From Nitrospirales bacterium (GTDB taxonomy: Bacteria > Nitrospirota > Nitrospiria > Nitrospirales > UBA8639), in contig CBDCWC010000003.1 in assembly GCA_965223295.1 (NCBI GenBank), positions 1,536,001-1,600,000 on the forward strand: a DNA stretch of 64,000 nt, given 5' to 3'. Every line of letters begins with the position of its first letter. The first letter of the stretch is position 1. Below are positions 10,520-29,949 of this stretch, one piece after another. The notes beneath the pieces were generated by a model. It made no database searches, was not told the DNA's origin, and saw only the letters and a list, made by a program, of their open reading frames with translations. The position numbers were made by a program, and so were the translations under genes.

Positions 10520-12157
10520 ATGACCTCAAGCGAAAAGGACATTCCTAGAGGGCAGATTTCAGAATTCCCGAAACACTGGCAGGCGGATATGGTTTCGGGG
10601 TTTTTGGTTTTTTTGATCGCGCTTCCGCTGTGCTTGGGGATTTCTTTAGCCTGTGGCTACCCTGCGATTTCCGGGATTTTTACGGCGATAATTGGTGGGG
10701 TGCTGGCCACTTTTTTCAGTAACTCTGAGCTCACGATTAAAGGGCCGGCCGCGGGGCTCATTGTTATCGCTCTGGGATGTGTGACGGAATTTGGGTTTAC
10801 AGGTGGGGAAGACCCTGCTGCTGATCTTCAGGCCTATCGCTTGGCTCTTGGTGTTGGTGTCGCAGCTGGACTGATCCAAATTCTATTTGGAATAGGTCGG
10901 GCGGGAATTCTGGGGGAGTTTTTCCCGACTTCGGCGGTGCATGGCCTGCTCACTGCTATTGGCGTCATCATTATGGCCAAACAATTTCCGGTGGCCATGG
11001 GCCTGAGTCCTGCAGGAACGCCTTTGGAACTGCTGGCCAACATTCCACATTTTATTCTGAACATGAATCCCCTGGTCGGTGTGATTGGCGTGGTGAGTCT
11101 GGTCATCATGTTTGGGTATCCGTTTCTGAAGAACTCTCGGTTGACCGCCATCCCAGCGCCAATGCTGGTGTTATGTATCACAGTGCCTTTAGCTATGTAT
11201 TTCAATATTGGAGGCGAGCAGACGTATTCCTTCCAAGGACAGGACTATCCATTAGGAAAGAATTTTCTCGTGGCGGTTCCGGAGAATATGTTTCATGCTC
11301 TCACCTTCCCTGACTTTTCTGGTCTCGGCACAACGATAGGAATAAAATATGTGATCATGTTTGCTTTAATAGGGAGTATCGAATCTCTTCTCAGCGCCAA
11401 GGCGATTGATGAAATTGATCCGTGGAAAAGAAAAACGGATCATGATCGAGATATGCTCGCGGTGGGAGTTGGGAATACCCTTGCCTCGTTTGTGGGTGGT
11501 CTTCCCATGATTTCGGAAATCGTTCGCAGCAAGGCCAATATTGATAATGGGGCACGGACTCGATTTGCGAATATGTTTCACGGCCTGTTTCTCCTGGGGT
11601 TTGTGGCACTCATCCCGGGCCTCATCAATCAGATTCCCCTTGCGGCCCTTGGAGCCATGCTTGTCTTTACGGGGTTCCGACTAGCGTCTCCTCAAGAATT
11701 TGTCCACATGTGGCAAGTTGGACGTGAGCAATTTATTATTTTTGTCTCAACGGTCATTGGCGTCTTGTCGACTGATTTGCTGATGGGAATCGCGATTGGC
11801 ATTGGTGTAAATTTTTTGGTGCATCTGAAGAATGGAGCGCCTCCTAAGTCACTTCTGAAGACACAAGTTACGGTGGGACGGCAGGAAAAGGAAGGCGTTG
11901 TTGTTCGAGTCAAAGATTCGGCTATTTTTAGTACATGGATCGGTCTGAAAAAAACATTAGAACCCTTAGTGACAGAATCTCGCGTGATCCTGGATTTATC
12001 CGATACGGCTCTCGTTGACCACACGGTTATGTCTAAACTTCAAGATATGGAAAAGACCTTTCAGGAACATGGATCGACCCTAGTCCTTGTGGGATTAGAG
12101 CAGCATCAGCGACTGTCTGATCATCCTGCCGCAGCGAGAAAAAAGGTGCGAACATAG
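10520..12157 (+). CDS. SulP/SLC26-family anion (probably bicarbonate) transporter with C-terminal STAS-like domain
   Basis: VFLIALPLCLGISLACG, GPAAGL, GGLPMISEIVRS and VILDLSDTALVDHT; lies next to dabA. Confidence 0.92.
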   Translation: MTSSEKDIPRGQISEFPKHWQADMVSGFLVFLIALPLCLGISLACGYPAISGIFTAIIGGVLATFFSNSELTIKGPAAGLIVIALGCVTEFGFTGGEDPAADLQAYRLALGVGVAAGLIQILFGIGRAGILGEFFPTSAVHGLLTAIGVIIMAKQFPVAMGLSPAGTPLELLANIPHFILNMNPLVGVIGVVSLVIMFGYPFLKNSRLTAIPAPMLVLCITVPLAMYFNIGGEQTYSFQGQDYPLGKNFLVAVPENMFHALTFPDFSGLGTTIGIKYVIMFALIGSIESLLSAKAIDEIDPWKRKTDHDRDMLAVGVGNTLASFVGGLPMISEIVRSKANIDNGARTRFANMFHGLFLLGFVALIPGLINQIPLAALGAMLVFTGFRLASPQEFVHMWQVGREQFIIFVSTVIGVLSTDLLMGIAIGIGVNFLVHLKNGAPPKSLLKTQVTVGRQEKEGVVVRVKDSAIFSTWIGLKKTLEPLVTESRVILDLSDTALVDHTVMSKLQDMEKTFQEHGSTLVLVGLEQHQRLSDHPAAARKKVRT

Positions 12158-12160
12158 GTC

Positions 12161-15100
12161 ATGAAAGATTCGATGACGGTTGAATCAGTGAGACAAGAGG
12201 TTTCTCCTTTGACCCAAGAAGAACGGAAAATGCTTGGTGCTGTCATTGAATCGGCCAGTGAGCCCATCGCCCCGTTTTGGCCCATGCGGACTATGGTGGC
12301 TCAAAACCCCATTCATGGCTTGGAATATCTTTCATTTGATGAGGCGGTTCGACAGGGCAAAGATCTTCTTGGAGGCAATGGTTATCTGCCGAATGAAGAA
12401 TATCGGCAATTCTATTTGGAAGGGCGAATCACTCTCGAAAGTATTCAACGGGCATTAATCCCCGTAGGACCTCGGCCCCAATCACAAGAACCGATCACGA
12501 TCGGAACGCGTCAATTTTCTCCTCAAGATATTTGGAAATGGCATCTGGTTCGCGGCTTCGAGGAGTTGGAACCTGTCCTCTTGCAATGGGAGCTCAGTGG
12601 ACGAGGAGCCATTGAGGAATTTCGTTCAGACTTTCCCAGTGAAGCCAAACATCGGATTATCCAACGAACGATTAAGGAATGTGAGCATTGTCGAGACTTT
12701 CCCGAAAAGGCCTATTTAACAAATCTATGGAATGCCACCTTATTTACATTAGGTCTTCATGATTCTATCTCGGAAGAAAAGACTGATCATGCCTCTGCTC
12801 AAAAAGAATTTTCTGCCCGTGCCATAGAAGAATCACCACTCGTCATTGATTTACCCGTTCGGCGAACGATGAGTGATTGGATCGAATGCTTGAGTAGTGT
12901 TCCTTTGGTCGAACAGATCAATCACCAAATGATTAAGTGGATTGCCGCTTTTGTTGACGAGGGGCAAGCAGGTTGGCAAATGCCATTCAGGGAGAAGGGC
13001 TTTTTCCTCGCGTGGCAGGACTTGGCTCAATTGGACTACTCTGGGCACTTCTTGGGGATTACTGACTTTCATCAGAAAGTTCAAGCGTTGCCTCCTGACC
13101 CTGAAGAGGTCATTGCTTTGTGTCTGCGCCGTCTTGGCGTTCCTTACGCACAATGGCAATCGTATCTTGCCCGTGAGCTCTCTCAACTGCCAGGATGGAC
13201 TCGATACATTCGGTGGTTGGGAGAACATCCTCTGTATCATGCTCAACGACAACATCCGATTGACACGAGACAGTATTTGGCGGTTCGACTGTTTTATGAA
13301 GTGGAATTGACTAACATTTGCTGTCGACAAGAATGGGGAATTGATGGAACTGTTTCAGCCATGACGGCATATTGGAAGGACCGATCTGAAGAATATCGCA
13401 ATCGAATAGGAGAAGGAGGGCATTCTATTGATCAAACAGAACGGATGATATGCCGAGACGCCTGGCGATTATTTCATCTCGCACAATTCCTTGAGTTATC
13501 TCCAATTGAAGTCCATGACCTATCACTTGCTGATGCTCAGAAGATGTTGCAATGGCTAGATGAATTTCCTGCTGATCAGCATAGTTCCGTGTGGCTTGAA
13601 GCCTATGAAGAATCGTTTCGGGCAGACATCCTAAGCAAGATCTCCGCGCATCGGGAGACCGTTCCAGCCTTAACGTCTCGTCCTCATGCGCAATTGGTCT
13701 TTTGTATCGATGTACGCTCTGAATCATTTCGCCGTCATATTGAAGCCCAAGGTCCTTACGAAACGTTCGGGTTCGCGGGGTTTTTTGGCATACCTCTGAG
13801 CCATCAAGTCTTTGATAGTGATCAGCGTTCCTTCTTGTGCCCTGTACTACTTACTCCTAACCATGCCGTCATGGAAATACCCCGATCTGGAGAGGAAACG
13901 GCGTTAGAAAAGTATTCTTCTGGTACTCGCTGGCATCAGCTGGGGCATCATTTCTTTCATGATCTGAAACATCATCCTATTGGGTCTATGATGGCAATTG
14001 ATGTGCTAGGACTCTTTTTTAGTCTGGGGTTGGTGGGAAAAACCCTATTCCAAAAAACATTTCAGGGGATTACCTCGAGCATCGAGCGTTGGTTCACCTA
14101 TAGAGTGCCGACTCAAATCGCGGTTTGCGCTCCCGTCGATCAGAAGAACCCAAAAGTCGGAGAAGTGCATGCAGAAGGGGTTCCCGTGGGTCTCGCTCAG
14201 GGGTTTTCTTTGGCAGAACGAGCCACCTTTATCGAAAACGGCTTACGCGCCATGGGACTTTCACAGAATTATGCGCGGCTCGTGTGCCTCTGTGGCCATG
14301 GCAGTGAGACAGACAACAATCCCTATTATGGCGCATTGGATTGTGGGGCCTGTGGAGGAGCACCCGGAGATGCGAATGCGCGGGTCTTTGCTGCAATGGC
14401 GAATGATCCTCAGGTTCGGCGTATCTTGAAACAAAATGGGTTGCCCATTCCAGACGATACGTGGTTCCTTCCTGGGAAACATAACACGACAACTGATCGA
14501 GTCGAGTTTTACGATCTAGAAGAATTACCTGGTACACATATTGAAGATTTGCGTGCGTTGAACAAAGATCTAGAAGCAGCTGGTGCGAATCAAGCCCTTG
14601 AACGTTGCCATCGCATTCCACGTGCCCCGGAAGAGATTTCTCCAGAGCAGGCCTTTGCTCATGTCATGGAGCGCAGTTGCGATTGGGCCAACCCTCGACC
14701 GGAATGGGGGTTAGCTGGGAATGGCGCCTTTCTTATCGGGAGACGGAAGCTGACGAAAGGTTTGGATTTAGGCGGTCGTGTGTTTTTGCATTCGTATGAT
14801 CCTCTTGCTGATCCCGAGGGAGCCATCCTTGAAAAAATCATGACCGCACCCTTAATTGTCGGCGAATGGATTAGCACCGGCTATTACTTTTCCGCTGTGG
14901 ATCCATGGACCTATGGCAGTGGTAGTAAAGTCTTGCACAATGTGGTTGGTGGTGTTGGAATGATGTTGGGAAGCCAAAGTGATTTGCAAATGGGCTTTCC
15001 TTTACAAACGGTGAATAACGGAGACGTTCACTATCACGAACCCATGCGGCTACTCGCCATCATTGAACATAAGCCGAGTGTGATCTCGTCTATCATTCAA

Positions 15101-15226
15101 AAACATGCGATCCTTCAGCGGCTATTTCATAACCAGTGGTTAAATCTTGTTGCGATCGATCCCCACACCTTTGCGTTTCATCGCTATTTTCCTGATGGCC
15201 AGTGGGAAGCTGTCACTCACAACTGA
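12161..15226 (+). CDS. dabA: DabA/MpsB (DUF2309, UPF0753) beta-carbonic-anhydrase-like inorganic carbon pump subunit
   Basis: IAPFWPM, FCIDVRSE, GFAGFFG, GHGSETDNNP, LDCGACGG, RPEWGLAGN, FLHSYD, YHEPMRL. The Cys/Asp/His/Cys Zn ligands are intact. Confidence 0.95.
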   Translation: MKDSMTVESVRQEVSPLTQEERKMLGAVIESASEPIAPFWPMRTMVAQNPIHGLEYLSFDEAVRQGKDLLGGNGYLPNEEYRQFYLEGRITLESIQRALIPVGPRPQSQEPITIGTRQFSPQDIWKWHLVRGFEELEPVLLQWELSGRGAIEEFRSDFPSEAKHRIIQRTIKECEHCRDFPEKAYLTNLWNATLFTLGLHDSISEEKTDHASAQKEFSARAIEESPLVIDLPVRRTMSDWIECLSSVPLVEQINHQMIKWIAAFVDEGQAGWQMPFREKGFFLAWQDLAQLDYSGHFLGITDFHQKVQALPPDPEEVIALCLRRLGVPYAQWQSYLARELSQLPGWTRYIRWLGEHPLYHAQRQHPIDTRQYLAVRLFYEVELTNICCRQEWGIDGTVSAMTAYWKDRSEEYRNRIGEGGHSIDQTERMICRDAWRLFHLAQFLELSPIEVHDLSLADAQKMLQWLDEFPADQHSSVWLEAYEESFRADILSKISAHRETVPALTSRPHAQLVFCIDVRSESFRRHIEAQGPYETFGFAGFFGIPLSHQVFDSDQRSFLCPVLLTPNHAVMEIPRSGEETALEKYSSGTRWHQLGHHFFHDLKHHPIGSMMAIDVLGLFFSLGLVGKTLFQKTFQGITSSIERWFTYRVPTQIAVCAPVDQKNPKVGEVHAEGVPVGLAQGFSLAERATFIENGLRAMGLSQNYARLVCLCGHGSETDNNPYYGALDCGACGGAPGDANARVFAAMANDPQVRRILKQNGLPIPDDTWFLPGKHNTTTDRVEFYDLEELPGTHIEDLRALNKDLEAAGANQALERCHRIPRAPEEISPEQAFAHVMERSCDWANPRPEWGLAGNGAFLIGRRKLTKGLDLGGRVFLHSYDPLADPEGAILEKIMTAPLIVGEWISTGYYFSAVDPWTYGSGSKVLHNVVGGVGMMLGSQSDLQMGFPLQTVNNGDVHYHEPMRLLAIIEHKPSVISSIIQKHAILQRLFHNQWLNLVAIDPHTFAFHRYFPDGQWEAVTHN

Positions 15227-15430: not shown

Positions 15431-15958
15431 ATGACAAGCAAGGGTTTTTCTCCAGGGGCCCGCCCTAGACCGATTTCCTCACAATTCTTGATACTAAAGA
15501 CCACGGCACTCTTTGTGTTGTGGATCATGTTATCTGCAAGTTTCGACTGGATCCATCTTGGATTGGGTTTGGTTCTCTCGTTTGCGGTAGCGTGGGTGAA
15601 CTCTGGCCACTCTCCCTTTGTTCCCAAATTTCGATTGTGGGGTAACATCATTCTCTATCTCCCTTGGCTTTTTGTGAAAATCGTCCAAAGCAGTCTTCAT
15701 CTATCAAAGCTCATTCTTCACCCCGCGCTTCCCATTAATCCTAGGTTGATCCACGTGGAGACGCAATTGGGACATCATGCAGCAGTTGTGCTTCTTGGTA
15801 ATTCCATTACGTTGACTCCTGGAACGATCACCGCGGAAGTTGAACGTAATACGCTCATTGTTCACGCCATGGATGAAGTTTCAGCGCAGGATGTCACAAG
15901 TAAGCGGATCGAATCCAAAATTGCTGCAATTTTTAAAGATGAAAAGCCGGATCTATGA
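15431..15958 (+). CDS. mrpE: Mrp/Mnh antiporter subunit E
   Basis: LLGNSITLTPGTIT and LIVHAM. Confidence 0.92.
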   Translation: MTSKGFSPGARPRPISSQFLILKTTALFVLWIMLSASFDWIHLGLGLVLSFAVAWVNSGHSPFVPKFRLWGNIILYLPWLFVKIVQSSLHLSKLILHPALPINPRLIHVETQLGHHAAVVLLGNSITLTPGTITAEVERNTLIVHAMDEVSAQDVTSKRIESKIAAIFKDEKPDL

Positions 15959-16221
15959 AAGTATTTCTGCTCTGTGTTTTGATCTTATTGGCTTTACTCA
16001 TTGGTTCGTATTTGTATCGTGTGCTTCAGGGGCCCACGATTTTTGATCGTGTATTGGGTCTCAATGGCATTTCTACCAAGGCGATTATTCTCTTGATTGT
16101 GATGGGTATGTACTTTGAGCGAATCGACATGTTTATCGATATCTCGACTGGGTATGCCCTATTGAATCTGGTGGGAGCTCTTGCCGTCGCAAAATTTCTG
16201 GAACAAAGAGGACTACCCTAG
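15955..16221 (+). CDS. mrpF: Mrp/Mnh antiporter subunit F
   Basis: RVLQGPTIFDRVLGL; three TM segments; ATGA overlap with mrpE. Confidence 0.92.
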   Translation: MKVFLLCVLILLALLIGSYLYRVLQGPTIFDRVLGLNGISTKAIILLIVMGMYFERIDMFIDISTGYALLNLVGALAVAKFLEQRGLP

Positions 16222-16222
16222 C

Positions 16223-16522
16223 ATGGAAGTGACTGCTATCTCCTGTATTCTGGCTGGATTATTTTTCTTGATTGTTGCGGCGATTGGGGTGATTCGTCTG
16301 CCCGATGTGTTTAGTCGTTCTCACGCCGTTTCGCTTACAGACTCGTTAGGTGCCTTTCTGATGTTAGTGGGCATTGCGCTTCATGAGGGCCTGAGTACGA
16401 GTACCCTGAAAATTATTGCAGTCTTGGCATTACTCTATATTCAAAATCCGGTTATTGCCCATGCGACGGTTCGCGCCGCGATGCGAGCTGGCCTCAAACC
16501 GTGGAAACGAGAGACCTCATGA
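16223..16522 (+). CDS. mrpG: Mrp/Mnh antiporter subunit G
   Basis: GVIRLPDVFSRSHA and NPVIAHA. Start placed at ATG 16223. Confidence 0.92.
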   Translation: MEVTAISCILAGLFFLIVAAIGVIRLPDVFSRSHAVSLTDSLGAFLMLVGIALHEGLSTSTLKIIAVLALLYIQNPVIAHATVRAAMRAGLKPWKRETS

Positions 16523-17049
16523 CCTTTTCGTATGAAATCCCCTTGCTCGTTCTTCTCCTTGCCACCGCAGCCGGTGCCATATTAGTCAAAGATCTCATCA
16601 GTGCGATCTTGCTCTTGGGGTCTTATAGTTTTTTTCTGGCCTTGGTATGGGCTTGGTTAGGAGCGGTGGATGTGGCGTTTGTCGAAGCAGTTGTTGGAGC
16701 TGGGTTAGCCACCGTGCTTTTTTTGCTCACCCTGTTTGGAACCGCACCAAAAGACAATCGTCTTAGGCGGCCACCACCGCCCATGGCAGCATTAATTGCT
16801 CTTCCACTGTTAGGCCTTCTCTTGCTCTATGCAGCAAACGATCTTCCTGAGTTTGGAGATCCATATTCTCCTGCAAGTGTTCATATTTCGCCGACCTATC
16901 TCGAACAGAGTTATGCGGATACTCATACACCAAATGTTGTGACCTCGGTGCTGATGGATTACCGCTCGCTCGATACGATGGTGGAAACCGTGGTGATTTT
17001 TACGGCAGGTATTGCCTGTGCCCTTTTGTTGAGGAGACAAACCTCATGA
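16519..17049 (+). CDS. MrpA C-terminal fragment homolog (DUF4040/MbhD-like plus MbhE-like)
   Basis: AVDVAFVEAVVGAG and PNVVTSVLMDYRSLDTMVE; ATGA overlap with mrpG. Confidence 0.88.
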   Translation: MTFSYEIPLLVLLLATAAGAILVKDLISAILLLGSYSFFLALVWAWLGAVDVAFVEAVVGAGLATVLFLLTLFGTAPKDNRLRRPPPPMAALIALPLLGLLLLYAANDLPEFGDPYSPASVHISPTYLEQSYADTHTPNVVTSVLMDYRSLDTMVETVVIFTAGIACALLLRRQTS

Positions 17050-17498
17050 TTCAACCTCACGATAGTATCATTGTTCAGACCTTGGGACGTTTTCTCATTC
17101 CGGTAATCCAAATTTTTGGGCTGTACGTGTTGTTTTTCGGCCAATACGGTCCTGGTGGAGGATTTGTTGGAGGAGTGATCTTAGGGACGGGTATGATTTT
17201 ATCAGTGTTGATTTTTGGCCATGATGCATCTCGGAGTCAGGTGGCGAAAAAAGTATTGCACGGTGATGGAGTCGGCATGTTGATTTATGCTGGGGTGGGA
17301 GGCTTATGTATGATTGGGGGTGGAGAGTTTCTCAATTATGCCAATCTGGAGATTCCAGGGCTTGAGACAGCATCCCGCCGGTCATTGGGAATCATCTTGA
17401 CGCAAATTGGTGTGGCTGTGGATGTGGCTGTTACGGCGGTCTCCATTGTGTTCAGTCTTTCTGCTGAAGAAATTATGGAGGATTCGATGAATGGGTGA
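17046..17498 (+). CDS. mrpB: Mrp/Mnh antiporter subunit B
   Basis: GQYGPGGGFVGG motif. Confidence 0.9.
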   Translation: MIQPHDSIIVQTLGRFLIPVIQIFGLYVLFFGQYGPGGGFVGGVILGTGMILSVLIFGHDASRSQVAKKVLHGDGVGMLIYAGVGGLCMIGGGEFLNYANLEIPGLETASRRSLGIILTQIGVAVDVAVTAVSIVFSLSAEEIMEDSMNG

Positions 17499-17868
17499 TC
17501 TCTTTTCCGCCGTCTTTCAGCGTCCTAACTTTTTGACGTTTGTCATTATTTTCCTGTGGGGCTTTTATATCATGGTGACACGATATAACCTCGTCAAGAA
17601 ACTGGTCGGTTTGTATCTGGTGCAAACCAGCGTAATTTTTTTTCTGGTATCTATTAGTGCGAAGAAACACTCAACCGCTCCCGTTCTTCTGTCTACCACT
17701 GAAACCGTGCAAGCTATGAACTATGCGAATCCGTTGCCACATGTGCTGACGTTGACGGCTATTGTGGTTGGTGTCGCTACCTTGGGTGTGGCCTTGGCCT
17801 TGTGTGCTGCGATCTATCGACGATACGGCAGTCTTGATGAAGAAGAAATTCTAAAAAAATTAGAATGA
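17491..17868 (+). CDS. mrpC: Mrp/Mnh antiporter subunit C (NuoK-like)
   Basis: NLVKKLVGL, NPLPHVLTLTAIVVG, YGSLDEEEI. Confidence 0.92.
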   Translation: MGDLFSAVFQRPNFLTFVIIFLWGFYIMVTRYNLVKKLVGLYLVQTSVIFFLVSISAKKHSTAPVLLSTTETVQAMNYANPLPHVLTLTAIVVGVATLGVALALCAAIYRRYGSLDEEEILKKLE

Positions 17869-19334
17869 CTCATCACTTTCCAGCCATTCTGTTTCTGCTC
17901 CCTTTGTTTGCGGCGATTTCCATGCCAGTGGTTTGTTTGAAACACCGAGAATGGAGTCGGCCTATCTCTCTGGCTGTACTCGGGGCTATGGTTGTGGTCT
18001 CCATTCTGAATCTCATCAGTGTCATCAATCACGGAGAAGTGCGATATGCCTTTAGTGGCTGGACTGCACCATTAGGCATTGAGTGGGTCGCAGATGGTTT
18101 AGCGAGCGTAATCCTTATGACATTGAGTCTCTTGGGTTTGCTGGCGTTGGTCTTTACCGGGCCTACTTCACCAAAAGATCTTGGTGGACGAATTGTTCAT
18201 TATTACATCTTGATCTTGCTGCTAATTTCCGCGCTCACTGGAATTGTGTTTGCAGGAGATTTATTTAATCTATTCGTATTTTTAGAAGTCGCAGCCATAT
18301 CCAGTTATGCACTCATTGGCGTGGCTGGAGGCAGAGCTCTATTCGCCGCTTTTCGTTATCTCGTGTTGGGAACGCTTGGGGCTTCCCTCTATTTATTAGG
18401 GGTGAGTTATTTCTACGCGGCCAGTGGGACGCTCAATATGGCAGATATGGCTCAGAAACTCCCCCAATTATTGACCTCGAAAGCTGTGGTCGGCGGGCTT
18501 CTTTTTATGTTCATAGGATTAGGCATCAAAATGGCTTTGGTGCCGTTCCATGCATGGCTGCCGGACGCCTACACGTATGCTCCGGAATCAATATCTCCTA
18601 TTTTGGCGGCATTGGTCACCAAGGTGGCATTATTAGGATGGGTCCGCATAATTTACTGGGTTCTGGGTGCCAAGGCCATCGTCTACGACATTCCTGTGCT
18701 CTTACTCGTGGGGATACTGGGCACTCTGGCGGCGGTCATTGGTGCGGTTCTCGCCCTGTCTCAGCGAAACATTAAAATGATGTTTGCCTATGGGGGGATT
18801 TCTCACATTGGCATCATTCTTATTGGCGTGAGTCAGGGTAACCATACAGGATTTGTGGGGGGTGTCTTCTATTTACTGAACGATGCAGTTATGCAAGCAG
18901 CATTGTTTTTTTTAGCAGGGGTAGCCATTTGCCAGTATGGCGTTCGGACCGTAGAAGATATTGGGCAAATTGGGAGACAAGCGCCTTGGTTTACGGGGGC
19001 TTTGGTGGTCGTGGCGCTAGGTATGATAGGCCTTCCTCCGACTGGGGGATTTTTTGGAAAATGGTATATCATTCTTGGAGCACTTGAAGCGAACAATTAC
19101 ATCGCAGTCGCCGCAGTTTTACTCTCGACTCTCCTGACGCTTGCCTATTTCGTGAAACTATTTGAGGCGATCTTTCGTCAACCAGCAACTCAATCGGAGA
19201 TGCTTCCAGGGGAGATTCCTTTCCCTTATAAACTGAGTGTGGGGATGACAGCCGCGGCCGTGATGATCTTAGGTCTGTTGAGTGACCCCATTGTTCAGTT
19301 TTTATTGAACCAGGCATTGCCACCCGGTATTTGA
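17865..19334 (+). CDS. mrpD: Mrp/Mnh antiporter subunit D
   Basis: DLFNLFVFLEV, GIKMALVPFHAWLPDAY, GLPPTGGFFGKW. Confidence 0.92.
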   Translation: MTHHFPAILFLLPLFAAISMPVVCLKHREWSRPISLAVLGAMVVVSILNLISVINHGEVRYAFSGWTAPLGIEWVADGLASVILMTLSLLGLLALVFTGPTSPKDLGGRIVHYYILILLLISALTGIVFAGDLFNLFVFLEVAAISSYALIGVAGGRALFAAFRYLVLGTLGASLYLLGVSYFYAASGTLNMADMAQKLPQLLTSKAVVGGLLFMFIGLGIKMALVPFHAWLPDAYTYAPESISPILAALVTKVALLGWVRIIYWVLGAKAIVYDIPVLLLVGILGTLAAVIGAVLALSQRNIKMMFAYGGISHIGIILIGVSQGNHTGFVGGVFYLLNDAVMQAALFFLAGVAICQYGVRTVEDIGQIGRQAPWFTGALVVVALGMIGLPPTGGFFGKWYIILGALEANNYIAVAAVLLSTLLTLAYFVKLFEAIFRQPATQSEMLPGEIPFPYKLSVGMTAAAVMILGLLSDPIVQFLLNQALPPGI

Positions 19335-19342
19335 AGGAAGCT

Positions 19343-21439
19343 ATGGCTATCTTTGTTTTGATTCCTTTGCTCCCTCTCCTTGCCTCGGTTCTCCTTCTTC
19401 TTGGAGGACGGCGATGGGGTGAGCAAAGTCACCGGATCGGAATTCCTGCTATAGGCCTGTCGTTTGGTTTGTCAGTGCTCGCTTTTCTTGAGGTCTTGCG
19501 TAACGGGCCTTTCTCTCTCTCTCTTTATCGTTTCTTTCAGTCTGGATCGTTATCCATTGACTTAGGTTTGTTTGTTGATCAACTCACCGTCCTGCTTTTG
19601 CTCTTGGTCACAGGGGTGAGTGGTGTGGTGCATGTGTATTCTTCCCGGTACATGATTGGAGACCCACGATACAACCGATTCTTTGCGGTCATCGCGTTGT
19701 TTACCTTTTCTATGGTGTTGCTTGTCATGAGTAACAACCTGTTGATGTTGTTGGTCAGTTGGGAAATTATGGGGATCTGTTCGTATCTCTTGATTTCCCA
19801 TGCCGCACAGCGACCCTCGGCAGGTCGGGCAGCGACCAAGGCGTTTTTGGTCAATGCGGTGGCGGATGTCGGGCTCAGTTTCGGAATTATTTTGACGTTT
19901 TTCACATTCGGCACGCTTGACATCCAAACTATCCTCACTGAGGCCGAAAGCATGCAGCATCAGAGGATCAATATTCTGGGATGGATGGGAGGAAATCTCC
20001 TCGTCAATCCAGTAACGCTTATTCCTTTCTTTTTATTCATCGGGGCTATGGGTAAGTCAGCTCAAATGCCGTTTCATATATGGTTGCCGTTTGCCATGGA
20101 AGCCCCCACTCCGGTGTCGGCATTGATTCACGCGGCGACCATGGTAAACGCCGGTCCGTTCCTGCTTGTGCGATTGAGCCCCTTGCTCGTCCTTTCTCCG
20201 TTCACTATGACCTTCATTGCGGTCATTGGAGCCACTACTGCGCTGTTCGCTGGTATTGTTTCCCTGACGCAGTCTGACATTAAAAAGATTTTGGCATATT
20301 CCACGATTAGCCAAATTGGTTTCATGATTATGACCTGCGGTTTAGGTGCATTCGTCGTGACGATTTTTCACCTGCTTGCTCATGGTTGTTATAAAGCGTT
20401 CTTCTTTCTTTCAACGGGGAATGCGCTTCGATCCGTCGCTCAAGGTCATGCCCATAGAGAGCAGGAGTATCATGCACCTCAAGGTATGGGCGTGTTGTAT
20501 GGTGGTGCGCTGTTATTGGCGTTGATTCCTCCGATTATTCTGTTTTCAGGTGCGTATGAAAACTTGTGGGGAGTGATGGGATTTGCTTCTGCCACAATTG
20601 GATTCCGCGTCATTGGTCTGATCACAGTGTTTGTGGCTTCTATGTATCTCTTCCGAAGCGTCACGTCGTTATTTGTTCATGGTCCAAAGACATATTGGCC
20701 GGTATCAGGCCAATCGGCGTTGCAGACACAATCCATTCGACCACAGTTTGTGAATGGTTCGATAATGGTTGGTCTTCTCATTGTCACGGTGATCGTAGGA
20801 GTAGCATTGACGCTGTTTTGGAGTTGGTTTGTCAGCTTCCTTGCTCCCGCATTAGCCCTTGCTGGTGTTGCGACGAATGAAGGAACGGTTGGGATCGGTT
20901 TCTCGATTTGGCTTCTGGGGGCTATTGGGATGGCCATTTCGGGATGGGTTTGTGCGTATTCGTGCGCTCAACCTGGCTCGCAAGTTGTCTGGTCAACTAG
21001 TAAAAACACAAGGTTATACATGCTCTTCTGGAATAAATGTTATTTTGATGAATTTTATGATGCCTATTTAGTGAACCCGACCATTCGATTTTCCCATTGG
21101 CTCTGGCACATGATTGATGTTGGGGTCATCGATAGATTCATACATTCCATCGCAACCTATTCCATTCTCTTTGCACGTTGGCTCTGGCGGATTGTGGATA
21201 TCAAAGGTATTGATCGAATGGTGATGGGTATTGGACGACAGAGCGTTGGTATGAGTGGATGGCTTTGGAAAGTGGTGGATATTCGATGGTTGGAAAAGAC
21301 AGTCAGTCAAGTGGGTAGCCAAGCAGATACGGCAGGGCAATTATTGCAAGAGGTCGAACCTCGTACCATTCAACATCAATTACTCGTCATGATACTTTGG
21401 CTGGTCTTGGCAACCGGACTATTATATATCTTGGTTTAA
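19343..21439 (+). CDS. dabB: DabB/NuoL-like antiporter-type subunit with an elongated C-terminal lateral helix
   Basis: WEIMGICSYLLI, GKSAQMPFHIWLP, MEAPTPVSALIHAATMVNAG, HLLAHGCYKAFFFL. NuoL-type tail NKCYFDEFY with three WLWxxxD repeats. ATG 19343 follows an AAGGAAG SD. Confidence 0.8.
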   Translation: MAIFVLIPLLPLLASVLLLLGGRRWGEQSHRIGIPAIGLSFGLSVLAFLEVLRNGPFSLSLYRFFQSGSLSIDLGLFVDQLTVLLLLLVTGVSGVVHVYSSRYMIGDPRYNRFFAVIALFTFSMVLLVMSNNLLMLLVSWEIMGICSYLLISHAAQRPSAGRAATKAFLVNAVADVGLSFGIILTFFTFGTLDIQTILTEAESMQHQRINILGWMGGNLLVNPVTLIPFFLFIGAMGKSAQMPFHIWLPFAMEAPTPVSALIHAATMVNAGPFLLVRLSPLLVLSPFTMTFIAVIGATTALFAGIVSLTQSDIKKILAYSTISQIGFMIMTCGLGAFVVTIFHLLAHGCYKAFFFLSTGNALRSVAQGHAHREQEYHAPQGMGVLYGGALLLALIPPIILFSGAYENLWGVMGFASATIGFRVIGLITVFVASMYLFRSVTSLFVHGPKTYWPVSGQSALQTQSIRPQFVNGSIMVGLLIVTVIVGVALTLFWSWFVSFLAPALALAGVATNEGTVGIGFSIWLLGAIGMAISGWVCAYSCAQPGSQVVWSTSKNTRLYMLFWNKCYFDEFYDAYLVNPTIRFSHWLWHMIDVGVIDRFIHSIATYSILFARWLWRIVDIKGIDRMVMGIGRQSVGMSGWLWKVVDIRWLEKTVSQVGSQADTAGQLLQEVEPRTIQHQLLVMILWLVLATGLLYILV
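21098..21340 (+). repeat. Three 81-nt (27-aa) tandem units within dabB/nuoL
   Basis: WLW codons begin at 21098, 21179 and 21260, an exact 81-nt period. Confidence 0.85.
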
Positions 21440-21472: not shown

Positions 21473-22978
21473 ATGGGCATATTGATGGATCACATCATTA
21501 GTTGGATGGTTGCTGTTCCTTTTTTAGGAATCGGGATTCTTGCGTTTGTCCGTGATGAAGAATGGATTAGACGAGTCGCCTTTGGTGCCACCATGGTGGA
21601 GTTTTTCCTCTCGATGGTCCTTTGGAGCAGTTTTGATTTTACCCAACAAGGTATGCAATTCGTTGAACGTGTGGAGTGGATGCCCACCTTCAATATTCAA
21701 TATGCCGTTGGCGTGGATGGGATCAGTATCCTGTTAGTCATCCTTACTGCTCTTCTGTGCCCACTTTGTGTTCTGTGTTCGTGGAACGCTATCACTACGC
21801 GAGTGCGAGCGTATCTGTCGCTGATCTTGCTTGTTGAAGGTGCGATGATTGTTGTCTTTACAGCTTTAGATCTTTTCCTCTTCTTCATGTTGTGGGAACT
21901 CACCATGATTCCCATGTATTTTATGATTATTTTGTGGGGAGGTCCGAATCGTATCACAGCAGGAATTAAATTTGTCTTGTACAGTCTGACGGGCAGCTTG
22001 TTATTGCTCGTGGGAATTCTTGGCCTCTACTTAGAAGGTGGGCATACCTACGATCTGTTGGTTCTCAGCGAACAAACGTATTCCTCTAGAACGCAATTCT
22101 GGCTATTTCTTGCGCTCTTCTTAGCGTTTGCCATCAAAATGCCCATGGTGCCATTTCACACCTGGTTGCCTGACGCACATTCCGAGGCCCCAACAGTCGG
22201 TAGCGTCATTTTAGCTGGAGTGCTGTTGAAAATGGGGGGCTATGGATTCTTGCGCTTTTGTTTGCCAATGTTTCCCGAAGCTTCGGTGAAATTTGCGCCG
22301 TATATATTATGGCTCTCTGTCATTGCCATTATCTATGGAGGCTACATGGCTTTGGCACAGTCTGATCTCAAAAAACTCGTCGCGTATTCCTCGGTCTCAC
22401 ATATGGGATTTGTCACTCTTGGGATCTTTGTTTTTAACAGTCAGGGAATCCAGGGCGCCATTTTACAAATGTTTAATCACGGGATTACCACTGCGGCTTT
22501 ATTTATTTCAGTGGGGCAACTCTATGATCGCACCCACAGCCGAGCCATCGGTGATTACGGGGGGTTGCATAAGCCCATGCCTAGGTTCGTAGCATTATTC
22601 TTTTTGTTCTCAGTTGCGTCATTTGGACTGCCGGGTACCTGTAATTTTATTGGTGAATTTTTGGTGCTTGTTGGGACGTCCTATGTCAATTTCGCGATGG
22701 TCTTGATTTCTATGGGAGGGATTGTCTTAGCCGCGGCCTATATGCTGTGGATGCTACAACGTTTGGCTTTAGGCGAACCGAACAAAGAAGTTGTGAGAGT
22801 GCTGCCAGACTTAACAAGTCGAGAATTAGCCACCGTAATTCCTCTAGCGGTACTTGTCCTCTGGATCGGACTATATCCGGGCCCATTGATGGAGATGATG
22901 GATGCGAGTGTGACTCATCTCGTTCAGCAGGTCGCTGCGTATGAATCCGCTCTTCCTGAGCACACGGTCTTACGTTAA
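21473..22978 (+). CDS. nuoM: NuoM-like antiporter-type subunit
   Basis: GVDGIS, WELTMIPMY, AIKMPMVPFHTWLPDAH, LLKMGGYG, LVAYSSVSHMG, FIGEFLVL. Confidence 0.93.
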   Translation: MGILMDHIISWMVAVPFLGIGILAFVRDEEWIRRVAFGATMVEFFLSMVLWSSFDFTQQGMQFVERVEWMPTFNIQYAVGVDGISILLVILTALLCPLCVLCSWNAITTRVRAYLSLILLVEGAMIVVFTALDLFLFFMLWELTMIPMYFMIILWGGPNRITAGIKFVLYSLTGSLLLLVGILGLYLEGGHTYDLLVLSEQTYSSRTQFWLFLALFLAFAIKMPMVPFHTWLPDAHSEAPTVGSVILAGVLLKMGGYGFLRFCLPMFPEASVKFAPYILWLSVIAIIYGGYMALAQSDLKKLVAYSSVSHMGFVTLGIFVFNSQGIQGAILQMFNHGITTAALFISVGQLYDRTHSRAIGDYGGLHKPMPRFVALFFLFSVASFGLPGTCNFIGEFLVLVGTSYVNFAMVLISMGGIVLAAAYMLWMLQRLALGEPNKEVVRVLPDLTSRELATVIPLAVLVLWIGLYPGPLMEMMDASVTHLVQQVAAYESALPEHTVLR

Positions 22979-23036: not shown

Positions 23037-24461
23037 CTAAGATTGTCTTTCCTGGTGGCGCAAAAGCATTTCATAATTCTGTTGGTAGAGTTGGGCGGTG
23101 GGATGATCAATGCCGAACGCTTCAGTAATGATTGGAATAGCGCGTTCATACAACGTGAGGGCCTCTTGAGTGTGCCCTTGAAGTTTCAAGACAGAGGCAA
23201 GGTTGTTCAACGTTGAAGCTACTTTAGGATGGTGAAGGCCTAGGGATTTTTCTCTGATTTCTAGGGCCTCTTCATAAAGGCGTCGAGCTTGGATGAGTTG
23301 ACCCTGCCTCTGCCGCAAGCCTGCATAGTTGGTCAAAAGAGTCGCCACTTGTAAATGGTCTGATCCAAGGTTTTCACGAGCACGGGACAGGGCCTCGAGG
23401 TAAAGAGATTCGGCTTTCGAGAACTGGTCCCGGCTTTGATGAAGTTCAGCCACATTATTTAATATCGTCACATGTTGATGGGGATGGGGGTTTGGGGATC
23501 GGTATAAAAGGATCAGGGCTTCTTTGTAGTGGTCATGTGCGAGGGTGTATTGCTGCTGTTCTTGGTACAAGCTCCCCAAGTTTTGTTGCAGTGTAATCTT
23601 AGAAGAAAAGTCAGAATATGGGAGGCGTTCAACGATGTCTAATGCTTGCTTGTAAAGCGACTCGGCGGGTGTATATTCCTGTTGTATGTGATGGAGCCGT
23701 GCCGCATTGTTCAAGACTCTGACTAATTGCGGGTCTACCCCTGAAGCCTTCTTGAGGTATCCAATAGCTTGCCGATATTCCTGTTGGGCCTCAATGTATC
23801 GGCCTTGCGCTTGAAGCACTTCTCCTAATGTATTGATCGTAATTCCTAACGTGCTGTAGGGAGGGTGTTTCCGTTGTTCCAACAAAGCAAGAGCTCGACG
23901 GATAGAGATTTCAGATTTAGAAAATTGTTCTTGTTTCCAATAGAGCTCGCCAAGATTGGTGATTGTTGAGGCCATCAGAAGGGTATCAGGAGGTTTTTGT
24001 TGTTCCAAAATTTCTAATGCCCGTTCTAGTAACCTTTCAGCTTCATCGAGTTTTCCTTGTGTTCGATAAATAATAGCTAGATTGTTCAGGCTCGTCGCCA
24101 GCTCAGGGTGGGATGCCCCAAGTGTTTTTTCTAATAATTCAATGGTCTGGTGGTAATCGGTCTCAGCTTGCCCCAAGAGCCCTAGGGCATATTGTGTTCG
24201 GGCCATATGGTAATGACTATTGGCTAAGCGGAGGTTGTCCGTCTTGAGTGCATGCGCTGATTCTTTGGCGGCATTGAAATGTTCTAGGGCTTCTGTGAAT
24301 TGTCTTCGATCGTAGGCTTTTGTCCCTTCGTCAATGGCCAATTCCCATGAATCGATATTGTGGGAACAGCCCGCGAAGATTCCCGAAAAGACTACAAATC
24401 CTAAGCTAAGGATATTCAGAAACCACCGTCTCAAAATTGAATGTAGGAAAGGCATCATCAT
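23037..24461 (-). CDS. TPR-repeat lipoprotein
   Basis: Lipobox FAGC; ~42-aa TPR repeats (HPELATSLNNLA, HPKVASTLNNLA). Confidence 0.9.
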   Translation of the reverse strand: MMMPFLHSILRRWFLNILSLGFVVFSGIFAGCSHNIDSWELAIDEGTKAYDRRQFTEALEHFNAAKESAHALKTDNLRLANSHYHMARTQYALGLLGQAETDYHQTIELLEKTLGASHPELATSLNNLAIIYRTQGKLDEAERLLERALEILEQQKPPDTLLMASTITNLGELYWKQEQFSKSEISIRRALALLEQRKHPPYSTLGITINTLGEVLQAQGRYIEAQQEYRQAIGYLKKASGVDPQLVRVLNNAARLHHIQQEYTPAESLYKQALDIVERLPYSDFSSKITLQQNLGSLYQEQQQYTLAHDHYKEALILLYRSPNPHPHQHVTILNNVAELHQSRDQFSKAESLYLEALSRARENLGSDHLQVATLLTNYAGLRQRQGQLIQARRLYEEALEIREKSLGLHHPKVASTLNNLASVLKLQGHTQEALTLYERAIPIITEAFGIDHPTAQLYQQNYEMLLRHQERQS

Positions 24462-25097: not shown

Positions 25098-26249
25098 ATG
25101 TTTATGAATAGGACAAAAATCATCGTTGCCATTCTCGTATGCTGGATGCTTGCGGGTTGTGCGAGCCAACAGGCTCATGAACGGGCTATGGAAGAGTTAG
25201 AAATGGCTAGCCAAAACTCTGCCCAAGAAGTTGAGCGGCTGCAACGCATTGTTGAGGAGCAGCAGGCTCAAGTTCTCCAACTGGAGGAAAATAAGCAAGA
25301 ACTTGAAAAGGCAATTGAAACCAAAGAAACGGCTGTCGTCCGACTTCAGGAGAAAAATGTTGACTTAGTAGACGAGGTAAAGCTTAAAGAACAAGAAAAG
25401 GAAGAGCAACTGCAAACGGTGAAATCTGAACTGCAAACACTGTATTCCGAGATTGCTGGGTTACAAGAGTTGACCGGGGTTGGGTCATTTTCGAAAGGAA
25501 GCTTGGAAGGGGACGACCTGAGTGATTTAAGCAATATGGCCAAAGCCTTTCAACATGTTCGGGATACTCTGCAGTCGCAAATTGATCATTTTTCTCAATT
25601 GCAACAGAACAACAAAGCATTAGAGCAAAATCTCGTTCAACTAGAGGACCGCCTGAAAAATGTTGAGCGGTTGAAAAGAGAGTTGGAAGAAGTGCGAGCA
25701 GCTCGTGAGGCGCAAGAGTCTCAACTAGCCAAAGTGAAACAGGAAGTCAATACCGTGAGCCGAGAAATTGACCGCATTACGCAAGCTCTGGAAGAAAAAT
25801 TTGGGAAGAGCTTAGTGGTGACTCAGCATCAGGACCGATTGGTCTTAACGATGCTCGGGCAAATTTTATTTGCCTCGGGAGAAGCACAACTTACGCCCTT
25901 GGGCCTTGATATTATGAAGCAAGTTGGGGAAGTGTTAGCAACATTGCCCAACAAGAATATCCAAGTGGAAGGCCATACCGACAATAATCCTATTTATGGC
26001 CGGCTTCAAAAAAGATTTCCGACGAATTGGGAATTATCAACGGCCCGGGCCACGACTGTGCTTCGGTATTTGATTGAGCAAACCGGTATGGATCCGAAAG
26101 ATTTCGCCGCTACCGGCTATGCTGATACACGGCCAGCTGTGGCAAACGACACTGATGAAGGGCGGGCTCAAAATCGTCGTGTGGAAATTGTGCTGTATCC
26201 AGAACGAGTTATTGATGATACCAAGAAAATGGCCACCCTTGCTCAATAA
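25098..26249 (+). CDS. Lipoprotein with long coiled coil and C-terminal OmpA/MotB peptidoglycan-binding domain
   Basis: Lipobox LAGC, GGAGGAG SD, VEGHTDN, NWELSTARA, AQNRRVEI. Confidence 0.92.
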   Translation: MFMNRTKIIVAILVCWMLAGCASQQAHERAMEELEMASQNSAQEVERLQRIVEEQQAQVLQLEENKQELEKAIETKETAVVRLQEKNVDLVDEVKLKEQEKEEQLQTVKSELQTLYSEIAGLQELTGVGSFSKGSLEGDDLSDLSNMAKAFQHVRDTLQSQIDHFSQLQQNNKALEQNLVQLEDRLKNVERLKRELEEVRAAREAQESQLAKVKQEVNTVSREIDRITQALEEKFGKSLVVTQHQDRLVLTMLGQILFASGEAQLTPLGLDIMKQVGEVLATLPNKNIQVEGHTDNNPIYGRLQKRFPTNWELSTARATTVLRYLIEQTGMDPKDFAATGYADTRPAVANDTDEGRAQNRRVEIVLYPERVIDDTKKMATLAQ

Positions 26250-26297: not shown

Positions 26298-27893
26298 TTA
26301 ATGGTGTGTTGACACTCCAGTATCGCTGCTTGGGATTGGATGATGCTGAATGAGGTTCAGATCATACAAAGCCAAGGTGGCGGGCGCGAGGAAGACATAC
26401 GCCGCCAATAAGCCCACTAGCGTCATCGTGATTGTATAGGGCAGCGCCATCCACACCATTTTCCCATATGACAAGCGAATGATGGGGGCTAAAGACGAGG
26501 TCAACAAGAACAAAAAGGCTGCCTGCCCATTCGGCGTCGCCACACTGGGAATATTGGTGCCCGTATTAATGGCCACCGCCAACAAGTCGAACTGATCCCG
26601 CGTAATCGTGCCCGCCTGCAGTGCTCGAAAAACTTCATTGATATAGACCGTCGCCACAAACACATTGTCGCTAATGGATGAAAGAATGCCATTGGCTAAA
26701 TAAAACATCCCAATTTGATGCGTTCCATCCAGACTCAATCCATAGCCAATAATGCCCGTGAATAAGTTTTGCTCCTGGATCACCGCCACAATCGCAAAAA
26801 ACACCACTAAAAGAGCCGTAAAAGGGAGGGCCTCTTTAAAGGCTTCCCCTAATTGATGCTCCTCAATAATTCCGTTGAAAGCGGTAATGAGGATAATAAC
26901 CGTCAGGCCAATGATGCCTACCTCCGCCAGATGAAAGGCCAAGGCGATAATCAACCAAATGCCGGCCACGGCTTGGACAATGAGCTTGGCCTTATCATCG
27001 TTATCGCGGCGGTTTGTTTGTTCCGTTTCATACTCCACTAAAATATGCCGCACCGGCTCGGGGAGTTGATAGCCATAGTCAAACCACCGCAGCTTCTCAA
27101 CTAGTAGACATGTGGCTAAACCCATGAGAAGGACTGGCAGGGTAATCGGGGCCATGCGAAAGACAAACTCCATAAATTGCCAGCTGGCCCGATCGGCAAT
27201 TAACAGATTTTGAGGCTCGCCCACTAAGGTACAGACCCCGCCTAAGGCGGTGCCGACGGCCCCATGCATCATCAGATTCCGGAGAAAGCCGCGAAAGTTC
27301 TCCAAGTTCTCTCGATTTAATTCCTGCACGTCGTGATCACTGGTATGGTCATGGGAGCTGGTATAAGACTTGCCAGAGGCTACGCGGTGATAGATGCTAT
27401 AAAAGCCCGTCGCGACGGCAATGATGACGGCGGTGACCGTGAGGGCATCCAGAAAAGCGGAGAGAAAGCCGCCCATGAGCGAAAACAGCAGGGCGAGCCA
27501 TTGTTTGGACTGGACGCCCAGGAGGATCTTGGTAAAGAGAAACAACAAGAGATCTTTCATGAAGTAAATACCTGCCACCATAAACATCAACAGCAGGATG
27601 ACCTGGAAATTATTCACGGTTTCGTGGTAGACCATGGCGGGGGTGGTCAGGCCCAGCAGGACGGCTTCCATGGCCAACAGGCCCCCTGGTTGGAGGGGGT
27701 AGCTTTTAAGGGCCATGGCGAGGGTGAAGATAAACTCCAGGATGAGCACCCACCCCGTCACGAAGGGGCCAGCCAAGAGCAGCAGGATAGGATTGAATAG
27801 CAGAAACCCCAGGATGGTGAGCTTGTACCAGGCGGGGGTGTGATTGAGAAAGTTCTGCGCCAGTTCCTGCGCAATACTACGTGTTATTGGCAT
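26298..27893 (-). CDS. nhaB: Na+/H+ antiporter NhaB
   Basis: [63 protein letters not shown]. Start placed at ATG 27893. Confidence 0.95.
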
Positions 27894-28111
27894 GCGAGCC
27901 CTTTCCTTTGAAGCGACCACTGAGCGTTAGTAAGTGAGAACTCTGCTGAGGATATTCCTAAGGCACGTCATAGAGGAATTGAGACGAAAAGCCTTCTATC
28001 GAGGTACGCTTATTATAGGAAGCTATTTCCTTCTAATCAAAGCATAAAGGTATAAAAATGAGAAAAATTCTGTTTCCTTTTAGAGATGGACGCAATGAGG
28101 GATAGGTTCTC

Positions 28112-29864: not shown

Positions 29865-29949
29865 CGTGATTAACTCAAACAATCTAAAAAACAATCAATA
29901 GGGATCAACTGCAAGGGAGCAGGTGCTCATAGACCTATACCCTGTAGTC

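Follow-up and report, generated by a model that had tools for sequence, protein, structure and literature searches.

Repeated 27-residue modules in the lateral helix of a NuoL-type subunit encoded with DabA and Mrp-type genes in a Nitrospirales bacterium

An operon for DabA, Mrp-type subunits and a NuoL-type protein

The window analyzed here is a stretch of 64,000 nucleotides (nt) from a Nitrospirales bacterium (GCA_965223295.1, contig CBDCWC010000003.1, positions 1,536,001 to 1,600,000), and the gene of interest encodes a NuoL-like antiporter-like subunit (hereafter L) whose lateral helix (HL) contains three modules of 27 amino acids (aa) each. The modules are genuine and old, each of them is conserved, and they evolve under purifying selection; among orthologues their number is labile (1–6) and unrelated to the number of pump genes. 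L is encoded in a tightly packed operon (SulP-DabA-MrpE-F-G-MrpA(CTD)-B-C-D-L-M, where CTD is the C-terminal domain and M a NuoM-like subunit; the L gene is counted as the ninth), in which the frames from MrpE through L overlap and a 33-nt spacer precedes the M gene:

10520..12157, plus strand: SulP/BicA-type anion transporter with a STAS domain (PF00916, PF01740)
12161..15226, plus strand: DabA, 1021 aa, the beta-carbonic-anhydrase-like subunit of the DAB CO2 pump (PF10070, 866.5 bits, whole model)
15431..17868, plus strand: MrpE, MrpF, MrpG, MrpA-CTD, MrpB and MrpC (PF01899, PF04066, PF03334, PF13244 with PF20501, PF04039, PF00420)
16501-17049, plus strand: the separate MrpA C-terminal domain, 182 aa, MbhD/MbhE-like (passes NF009159; matches MrpA models at about 600-780)
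17865..19334, plus strand: MrpD-like subunit, 489 aa (PF00361; best NCBIfam matches are MrpD models, all below cut-off)
19331..21439, plus strand: L, NuoL-like antiporter-like subunit, 702 aa from TTG 19331 (PF00662 and PF00361)
21473..22978, plus strand: M, NuoM-like subunit, 501 aa, last gene of the operon (PF00361 and PF01059; TIGR01972 621 bits vs. 263.8)

The Mrp-type (CPA3) gene set B, C, D, E, F and G is complete, with PF04039, PF00420, PF00361, PF01899, PF04066 and PF03334 all over their cut-offs, and the DAB marker DabA (PF10070) is present; the operon is a putative CO2-uptake cluster (DabA plus an Mrp-type antiporter), and neither a complex I operon nor a classical DabAB pair. Besides L, Pfam identifies two antiporter-like subunits in the cluster, MrpD-like and NuoM-like, in line with a preliminary description of this DNA. 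The TTG start of L gives a 4-nt overlap with the stop of the MrpD-like gene; an ATG at 19343 would give perhaps 698 aa, the length recorded for the closest orthologues of L, such that the start is uncertain by four codons and the repeat is unaffected.

On domain and family tests of the sequence, L is a NuoL-type subunit, and the region of interest is its tail, comprising transmembrane helix (TM) 15, HL and TM16. L passes the NuoL subfamily model TIGR01974 (NDH_I_L; 458.5 bits vs. a cut-off of 407.5) and scores below the cut-off of the NuoL equivalog NF005141 (462.8 vs. 556; NCBIfam), which both nuo-encoded NuoL proteins of the same genome pass (760 and 749 bits). Its best matches in the PDB are Nad5/NuoL chains (E about 1e-80), with MrpA chains (E 1e-34 to 1e-37) and DabB2 (E 3e-38) much weaker. 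The NuoL C-terminal architecture TM15–HL–TM16 is present in L (alignments A1 and A4; helices of an AlphaFold2 (AF2) model).

Four assignments for L were rejected. L falls far under every MrpA equivalog cut-off (e.g., NF009287, 233.7 vs. 937), and the MrpA C-terminal domain is a separate gene (16501-17049). L is not the NuoL of complex I, as its neighbors are DabA, MrpEFG, MrpA-CTD, MrpBCD and the NuoM-like gene; the operon has none of nuoA-K, and the two nuo loci of the genome are separate. L is not a 2M-type complex I NuoL, in that it has two extra modules and a single accompanying nuoM-like gene. Lastly, L is not DabB, given its 702 aa, long HL and TM16, a gene position not adjacent to dabA, and a separate DabB of 564 aa in the genome. 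Thus, of the DabB/NuoL label in the preliminary description, the NuoL-type tail stands and the DabB part falls.

The likeness to known systems is partial in each case. As in Mrp (PDB 6z16, 7qru, 7d3u), the operon encodes MrpE, F, G, B, C and D, with L in the role of the N-terminal domain of MrpA, the HL of which braces a neighboring subunit (PMC7419157); unlike Mrp, the MrpA C-terminal domain here forms a protein of its own (182 aa), there is a third pump, which is NuoM-like, and L is nearer to NuoL than to MrpA in the PDB search described above. As in DAB1 and DAB2 (PDB 9rd0), a PF00361 protein is encoded with DabA, and L is the closest of the three pumps of the operon to the DabB of the genome (phmmer, 288 bits). 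DabB is described as having a short HL only and no long strap (bioRxiv 10.64898/2026.03.13.711513, 10.64898/2026.05.01.722082), and the open frame of this genome's own DabB ends about 20 residues past the YVDxxY motif, whereas L has the full HL and TM16, and a whole Mrp module of seven genes separates it from DabA.

Old, conserved modules in the lateral helix

The HL and C-terminal anchor of L comprise the following segments, with AF2 confidence given as the predicted local distance difference test (pLDDT):

21044..21097, plus strand: pre-module HL segment FDEFYDAYLVNPTIRFSH, common to all NuoL; aligns with residues 612-661 of Paracoccus NuoL (8qby_L)
21098..21178, plus strand: HL module 1 WLWHMIDVGVIDRFIHSIATYSILFAR, counterpart of the single module of canonical NuoL; inside the confident AF2 helix 569-622
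21179..21259, plus strand: HL module 2 WLWRIVDIKGIDRMVMGIGRQSVGMSG; AF2 helix break at 623-625, then 626-642 at low confidence
21260..21340, plus strand: HL module 3 WLWKVVDIRWLEKTVSQVGSQADTAGQ; AF2 pLDDT < 50
21341..21379, plus strand: post-module segment LLQEVEPRTIQHQ, a family signature; canonical NuoL has LQSGxxxxY here (alignments A1 and A4)
21380..21436, plus strand: TM16, C-terminal anchor helix; AF2 helix 676-701, pLDDT 75-83

The modules WLWHMIDVGVID, WLWRIVDIKGID and WLWKVVDIRWLE begin at residues 590, 617 and 644 (nt 21098, 21179 and 21260), spaced by exactly 27 aa or 81 nt in the translation of L (19331-21439, plus strand). The preliminary description had named three exact 27-aa repeats at these positions; the positions and the 81-nt period hold, but the units are not exact, only 4–9 of 27 residues being identical (pairwise, 9, 4 and 9 of 27 residues; at the DNA level, 37, 33 and 36 of 81 bases). 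The span of 107 aa that it gave from FDEFY (residue 572, nt 21044) to EVEPR has the same value in the L translation. Placed in register, the modules reach a sum-of-pairs BLOSUM62 score of 149, against -85.1 ± 21.1 for shuffled sequences (0 of 20,000 shuffles reach 149), and self-similarity over lags 15–60 peaks only at 27 (0.82) and 54 (-0.05), all other lags being at or below -0.74. Tandem Repeats Finder detected no DNA-level repeat in the L tail, and the units are diverged; the duplication is therefore old. The module consensus is W-L-W-x-x-V-D-x-x-x-I-D followed by 15 less conserved residues, and module 3 is of the type retained in relatives with one module.

The HL of L is confirmed to be lengthened. 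Taken between the xDExY motif and the motif preceding TM16, the span within this genome is 58 aa in canonical NuoL (one module), 83 aa in the 2M NuoL (two modules) and 112 aa in L (three modules). The 2M NuoL is thus 25 aa longer than the canonical form, and its gene (in the nuoL, two nuoM, nuoN locus G000:C3:1499147-1505878) is followed by two nuoM and one nuoN. These values bear out three points that the preliminary description had made: that canonical NuoL has one unit and an HL of about the stated length, that in 2M-type complex I a longer helix goes with an extra NuoM, and that L carries two units more than canonical NuoL. Among generic NuoL representatives, the distance from xDExY to the C-terminus is 73–82 aa in 46 of 67 and 101–105 aa in 9 of 67, a count from which 65 further representatives without the motif were left out. 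An HL insert of about 26 aa is on record for the 2M-type complex I NuoL of Nitrospira, as well as for MrpD2/NuoL of ‘Ca. Manganitrophaceae’ (Chadwick et al., 2018, via PMC9040806), and HL inserts also occur in complexes that have no additional pump (PMC9040806).

L shares with NuoL, Nqo12 and ND5 of complex I the order PF00662, PF00361, TM15, amphipathic helix, TM16, as well as the lead-in NKxYFDExY, and a LWxxxDxxxID module is recognizable both in Paracoccus NuoL 8qby_L and in NuoL of the same genome. It differs in having three modules, not one, with the correspondingly longer span, in scoring below the NuoL equivalog cut-off, in having EPRTxQHQ after the modules where canonical NuoL has LQSGxxxxY, and in being encoded in a DabA/Mrp-type operon rather than nuoA-N. 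With 2M-type NuoL it shares an HL lengthened by module-sized steps; it differs in its two extra modules, in the range of 1–6 modules among its orthologues and in the lack of any added nuoM at the 53 orthologous loci described below.

The modules are constrained about as strongly as the core of the protein. The ratio of nonsynonymous to synonymous substitution rates (dN/dS) for the modules in five pairs of L with a close orthologue is 0.15, 0.19, 0.11, 0.11 and 0.09, compared with 0.08–0.13 for the core; for TM16 it is 0.01–0.17, with a mean column identity of 0.82. Across 17 orthologues the WLW, Asp and GIDR positions are nearly invariant, and in module 2 column identity is high at WLW, D, GIDR and G.

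Module number and pump-gene number among orthologues

A search with L residues 545-702 found 192 proteins; among the best 120 of these, lengths are mostly about 700 aa and the named sources are Nitrospirales, Nitrospina gracilis, ‘Ca. Nitronauta’ and Nitrospinaceae. In the 162 family proteins with an xDExY motif (9 further ones lack it), the distance from the motif to the C-terminus is 130–132 aa in 134, 153–159 aa in 16, 186–188 aa in two, 214 aa in one and 104–107 aa in three. This distance was used for counting because a hidden Markov model of the 27-aa unit undercounts degenerate last modules. Tail lengths are quantized in 27-aa steps, and the differences are insertions or deletions of whole 27-residue modules (alignment A1). 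A contig scan with a generic pattern derived from A1, N[KA]xY[FLI]DExY[DE], gave 6 family members among the 80 loci listed.

Gene contexts came from species-representative genomes, from 26 genomes belonging to the same phylum as the window, and from metagenome contigs that a search with P0141, a 1-module protein, had found. Of the 53 loci with a full-length L, 20 have one module, 24 have three, six have four, and one each has five and six; one locus (L134) is unclassed. The operon strand carries at most three PF00361 genes at each of the 53. Forty-three of them have the full order E-F-G-A(CTD)-B-C-D-L-M (12, 23, 6, 1 and 0 in the 1-, 3-, 4-, 5- and 6-module classes, plus the unclassed locus), and most of the others end at contig edges. 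At one locus of a Nitrospinota metagenome-assembled genome (L001:1-8555), L and M follow CitMHS transporters, glycosyltransferases and a TPR protein, not MrpE-D, from rearrangement or misassembly. DabA lies on the operon strand in 40 of the 53 loci (14, 17, 6, 1 and 0 in the same five classes, plus one unclassed and one from the summed classes). At four loci (L112, L113, L114 and L116), a DabA-DabB pair (DabB 566–573 aa) is divergent beside MrpE, and DabA is not in the operon; the DAB–Mrp neighborhood is thus kept in two layouts. By eye, module number shows no correlation with DabA length, DabA being mostly 1008–1050 aa, with one open reading frame (ORF) of 1266 aa at a 4-module locus.

The same partner genes thus accompany one to six modules, and strap length is therefore not a simple count of pump subunits. 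The preliminary description had suggested comparing repeat number with the number of PF00361 genes in homologous operons, and had taken the two extra units as room for about four pumps beyond L; the comparison does not support that step, in that orthologous operons have the same three PF00361 genes and 1, 3, 4, 5 or 6 modules. It had also proposed that the additional partners might be encoded elsewhere. No support was found for such partners, the separate DabB (564 aa) being the only PF00361 gene outside the nuo-type operons, and all 11 PF00361 genes of the genome are accounted for at four loci: three in nuo (nuoL-M-N), four in 2M-nuo, one DabB with its own DabA, and three in the operon described here. 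The 4-module genomes G301 (99% complete, two contigs) and G249 share with the 3-module genome G265 a 3+4+3 set of PF00361 genes, and the census of PF00361 genes found no DabB in G301 or G249. Among other 3-module genomes, G159, G275 and G341 have 3+4+3 plus DabB only, and G186 adds DabB and a weak neighboring match. Three further 4-module genomes (G357, G359 and G325) have extra PF00361 clusters elsewhere and so are uninformative on hidden partners. On these counts, it is barely credible that the extra modules make room for pump subunits with genes elsewhere in the genome.

The classical DAB locus of the genome lies outside the window (G000:C3:136845-142903, minus strand) and comprises DabB (564 aa), a 358-aa ORF and DabA (1081 aa). 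In the relative G186, the ORF beside DabB gives a weak PF00361 match (30 bits) that recalls the half-NuoM-like DabC of DAB1.

Orthologues have repeatedly gained and lost whole modules with no change in the encoded subunits. In a quick IQ-TREE phylogeny of 50 rows (without L134 and L001), sister proteins differ in module number in three pairs (L125 with three vs. L132 with four; L133 with four vs. L005 with five; L003 with three vs. L006 with four), and Nitrospinota proteins with three modules are sister to P0074/P0104 with four. In a FastTree phylogeny of 41 chosen rows, the 1-module clade is nested within the 3-module forms, next to the clade that holds L (local support 100); its position implies a derived loss of two modules with the operon otherwise unchanged. 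Both trees place the L proteins of Nitrospinota as one clade within the marine Nitrospirota clade, and two gammaproteobacterial operons (L003; L006, from Pseudohongiella) nest inside the family, which suggests that the whole operon has moved between phyla. Counts across these loci include related sequences that are not independent, and two loci (L113 and L148) possibly come from the same genome.

On another reading, the extra modules would be functionally neutral slack, tolerated after unequal recombination between 81-bp repeats. Module number changes often in the trees, and in the 6-module locus (L004) the repeat is still visible in the DNA (81 bp, 5.5 copies, 79% matches), so that some expansions are recent. 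The modules of the window, however, are old (33–37 of 81 nt identical, no Tandem Repeats Finder match) yet have dN/dS values of 0.09–0.19, like the core, from which it follows that the extra modules are not slack; moreover, tail length is held at 130–132 aa in 134 of the 162 proteins, across three phyla. We regard tolerated slippage as very unlikely.

Shape of the strap and the role of module number

The AF2 monomer model of L (144 sequences, mean pLDDT 73) has helices at residues 526-546, 558-642 (broken at 568 and 623-625) and 676-701. The confident helix 569-622 comprises the lead-in, module 1 and the start of module 2, the pre-module segment having pLDDT values of 75-87, and pLDDT is below 50 over residues 634-678. 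Relative to the first residue of each module, the hydrophobic moment points to -88, -57 and -70 degrees, i.e., alike in all three. Because 27 residues make 7.5 turns of an ideal alpha-helix, successive modules can show equal faces only with one re-phasing of the helix per module.

Each module may thus form a separate amphipathic helix segment, and the string of segments could brace the cytoplasmic face of the membrane arm of a DabA-linked Mrp-type complex comprising MrpE-F-G, the MrpA C-terminal domain, MrpB-C-D, L and the NuoM-like subunit. The strap modules lie between the common lead-in (FDExY...) and the conserved TM16 anchor. The two extra modules would most likely be surface-binding segments on or beside the row formed by L, M and D, with its small subunits; less likely, they would be place-holders for two further pumps. 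Under this proposal, module number would be an evolvable means of setting the length of a segmented surface-binding belt and not a pump-gene count, a reading that we prefer tentatively, with slightly less than even confidence.

Several points weigh against a belt of this kind. No result places the extra modules; the AF2 monomer is uninformative beyond about residue 625 and does not discriminate extension from hairpin. The acidic and Trp positions kept in every module fit a repeated protein surface (e.g., successive pumps) better than lipid. TM16 is conserved in 3-module orthologues, and in 1-module relatives it is similarly hydrophobic, as judged by eye from the tails, which points to a single docking site, and a helix of three modules running straight would extend beyond it by about 80 Å (54 residues × 1.5 Å) unless it were bent or more subunits lay between. 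In addition, three modules are the old and prevailing state, an argument for selection on length itself.

Some of the same observations would suit a molecular ruler, whereby HL would set the length of a row of identical NuoM-like protomers, L-M(n)-D, n being the module number (cf. L-M-M-M-D), and 81-bp indels alter the number of pumps per complex without gene duplication. Within this one genome, canonical NuoL (three pumps) has one module and 2M NuoL (four pumps) has two; 1-module orthologues would fit L-M-D; the WLW..D..ID motif is kept in every module under purifying selection; tail lengths are quantized, with almost no partial units; and TM16 is conserved in 3-module orthologues. M is furthermore the only gene from MrpE to M with an intergenic spacer of its own; however, 1-module loci also have an L-M spacer (39–48 nt), hence it is no sign of extra M synthesis, and we dropped it as a mark of separate translation of M. 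Six modules, as at L004, would mean eight pumps. We know of no complex of this superfamily in which a single antiporter-like gene product fills more than one position, and this also counts against a ruler. A complex prediction for two NuoM-like copies (residues 5–500, alignment A3) gave no answer (score 0.00), which speaks neither for nor against self-association. In the Nitrospira marina proteome, mrpA-G, alt_nuoL and alt_nuoM of the orthologous cluster are listed with 0 spectral counts under both oxygen regimes (PMC8115632, supplement file 2), and thus no stoichiometry bearing on the ruler can be read from it; the neighboring bicA_3 and nhaB_1 are detected in the same file. A ruler of identical protomers appears rather unlikely. 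The closely related claim that HL is a tape measure fixing the count of identical NuoM-like protomers between L and the MrpD-like subunit also seems unlikely, and marginally more so. If it were true, gaining or losing 81 bp in frame would reset how many ion pumps are coupled to DabA-driven CO2 hydration while gene content stayed unchanged, giving three pumps in 1-module lineages, five here, and up to eight.

Alternatively, the extended helix and TM16 might reach into a second complex and steady a dimer or row, as Mrp dimerizes via MrpE. Mrp is a dimer with MrpE at the interface (PMC7419157), the operon described here includes MrpE, and a cross-brace of this kind could tolerate any integer number of modules. 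However, the 1-module clade works without such a brace, and the likeness by eye of TM16 in 1- and 3-module forms suggests the same docking site in both. We consider cross-bracing improbable.

Beyond the operon, the window encodes a TPR protein (23037-24461, minus strand), a coiled-coil OmpA/MotB-like protein (25098-26249, plus strand), NhaB (26298-27920, minus strand) and two neighboring paralogous DUF3391 plus HD_5 (HD-GYP-like) proteins (28524-29894 and 30520-31869, both minus strand). The corresponding locus of ‘Ca. N. alkalitolerans’ has nhaB, motB and bicA (PMC7784846). The account of that locus notes Mrp, nuoL/M-like genes and BicA, with no mention of DabA or of the helix in the parts of the article available (PMC7784846). 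The reports on the DAB1 and DAB2 structures describe neither a multi-module HL nor a DabA–Mrp complex, and a literature search found no paper on either, the supplements of the bioRxiv DAB preprints being outside the search.

Under the 2M rule, strap-helix length has served as a stand-in for pump-subunit number, and the L family breaks that reading. In one type of operon, with the same three pump genes, there are 1, 3, 4, 5 or 6 conserved strap modules; either the rule is wrong or stoichiometry changes without new genes, and either outcome bears on how antiporter-like subunits are coupled or braced by HL. The 1-, 3- and 4-module orthologues found in nature are a ready-made experiment on this question. 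An operon for DabA and a three-pump Mrp-type complex beside a BicA-like transporter is widespread in marine nitrite oxidizers (Nitrospirales, Nitrospinaceae) and occurs in some Gammaproteobacteria; barely described as yet, it may encode an unstudied inorganic-carbon uptake machine of major marine nitrifiers.

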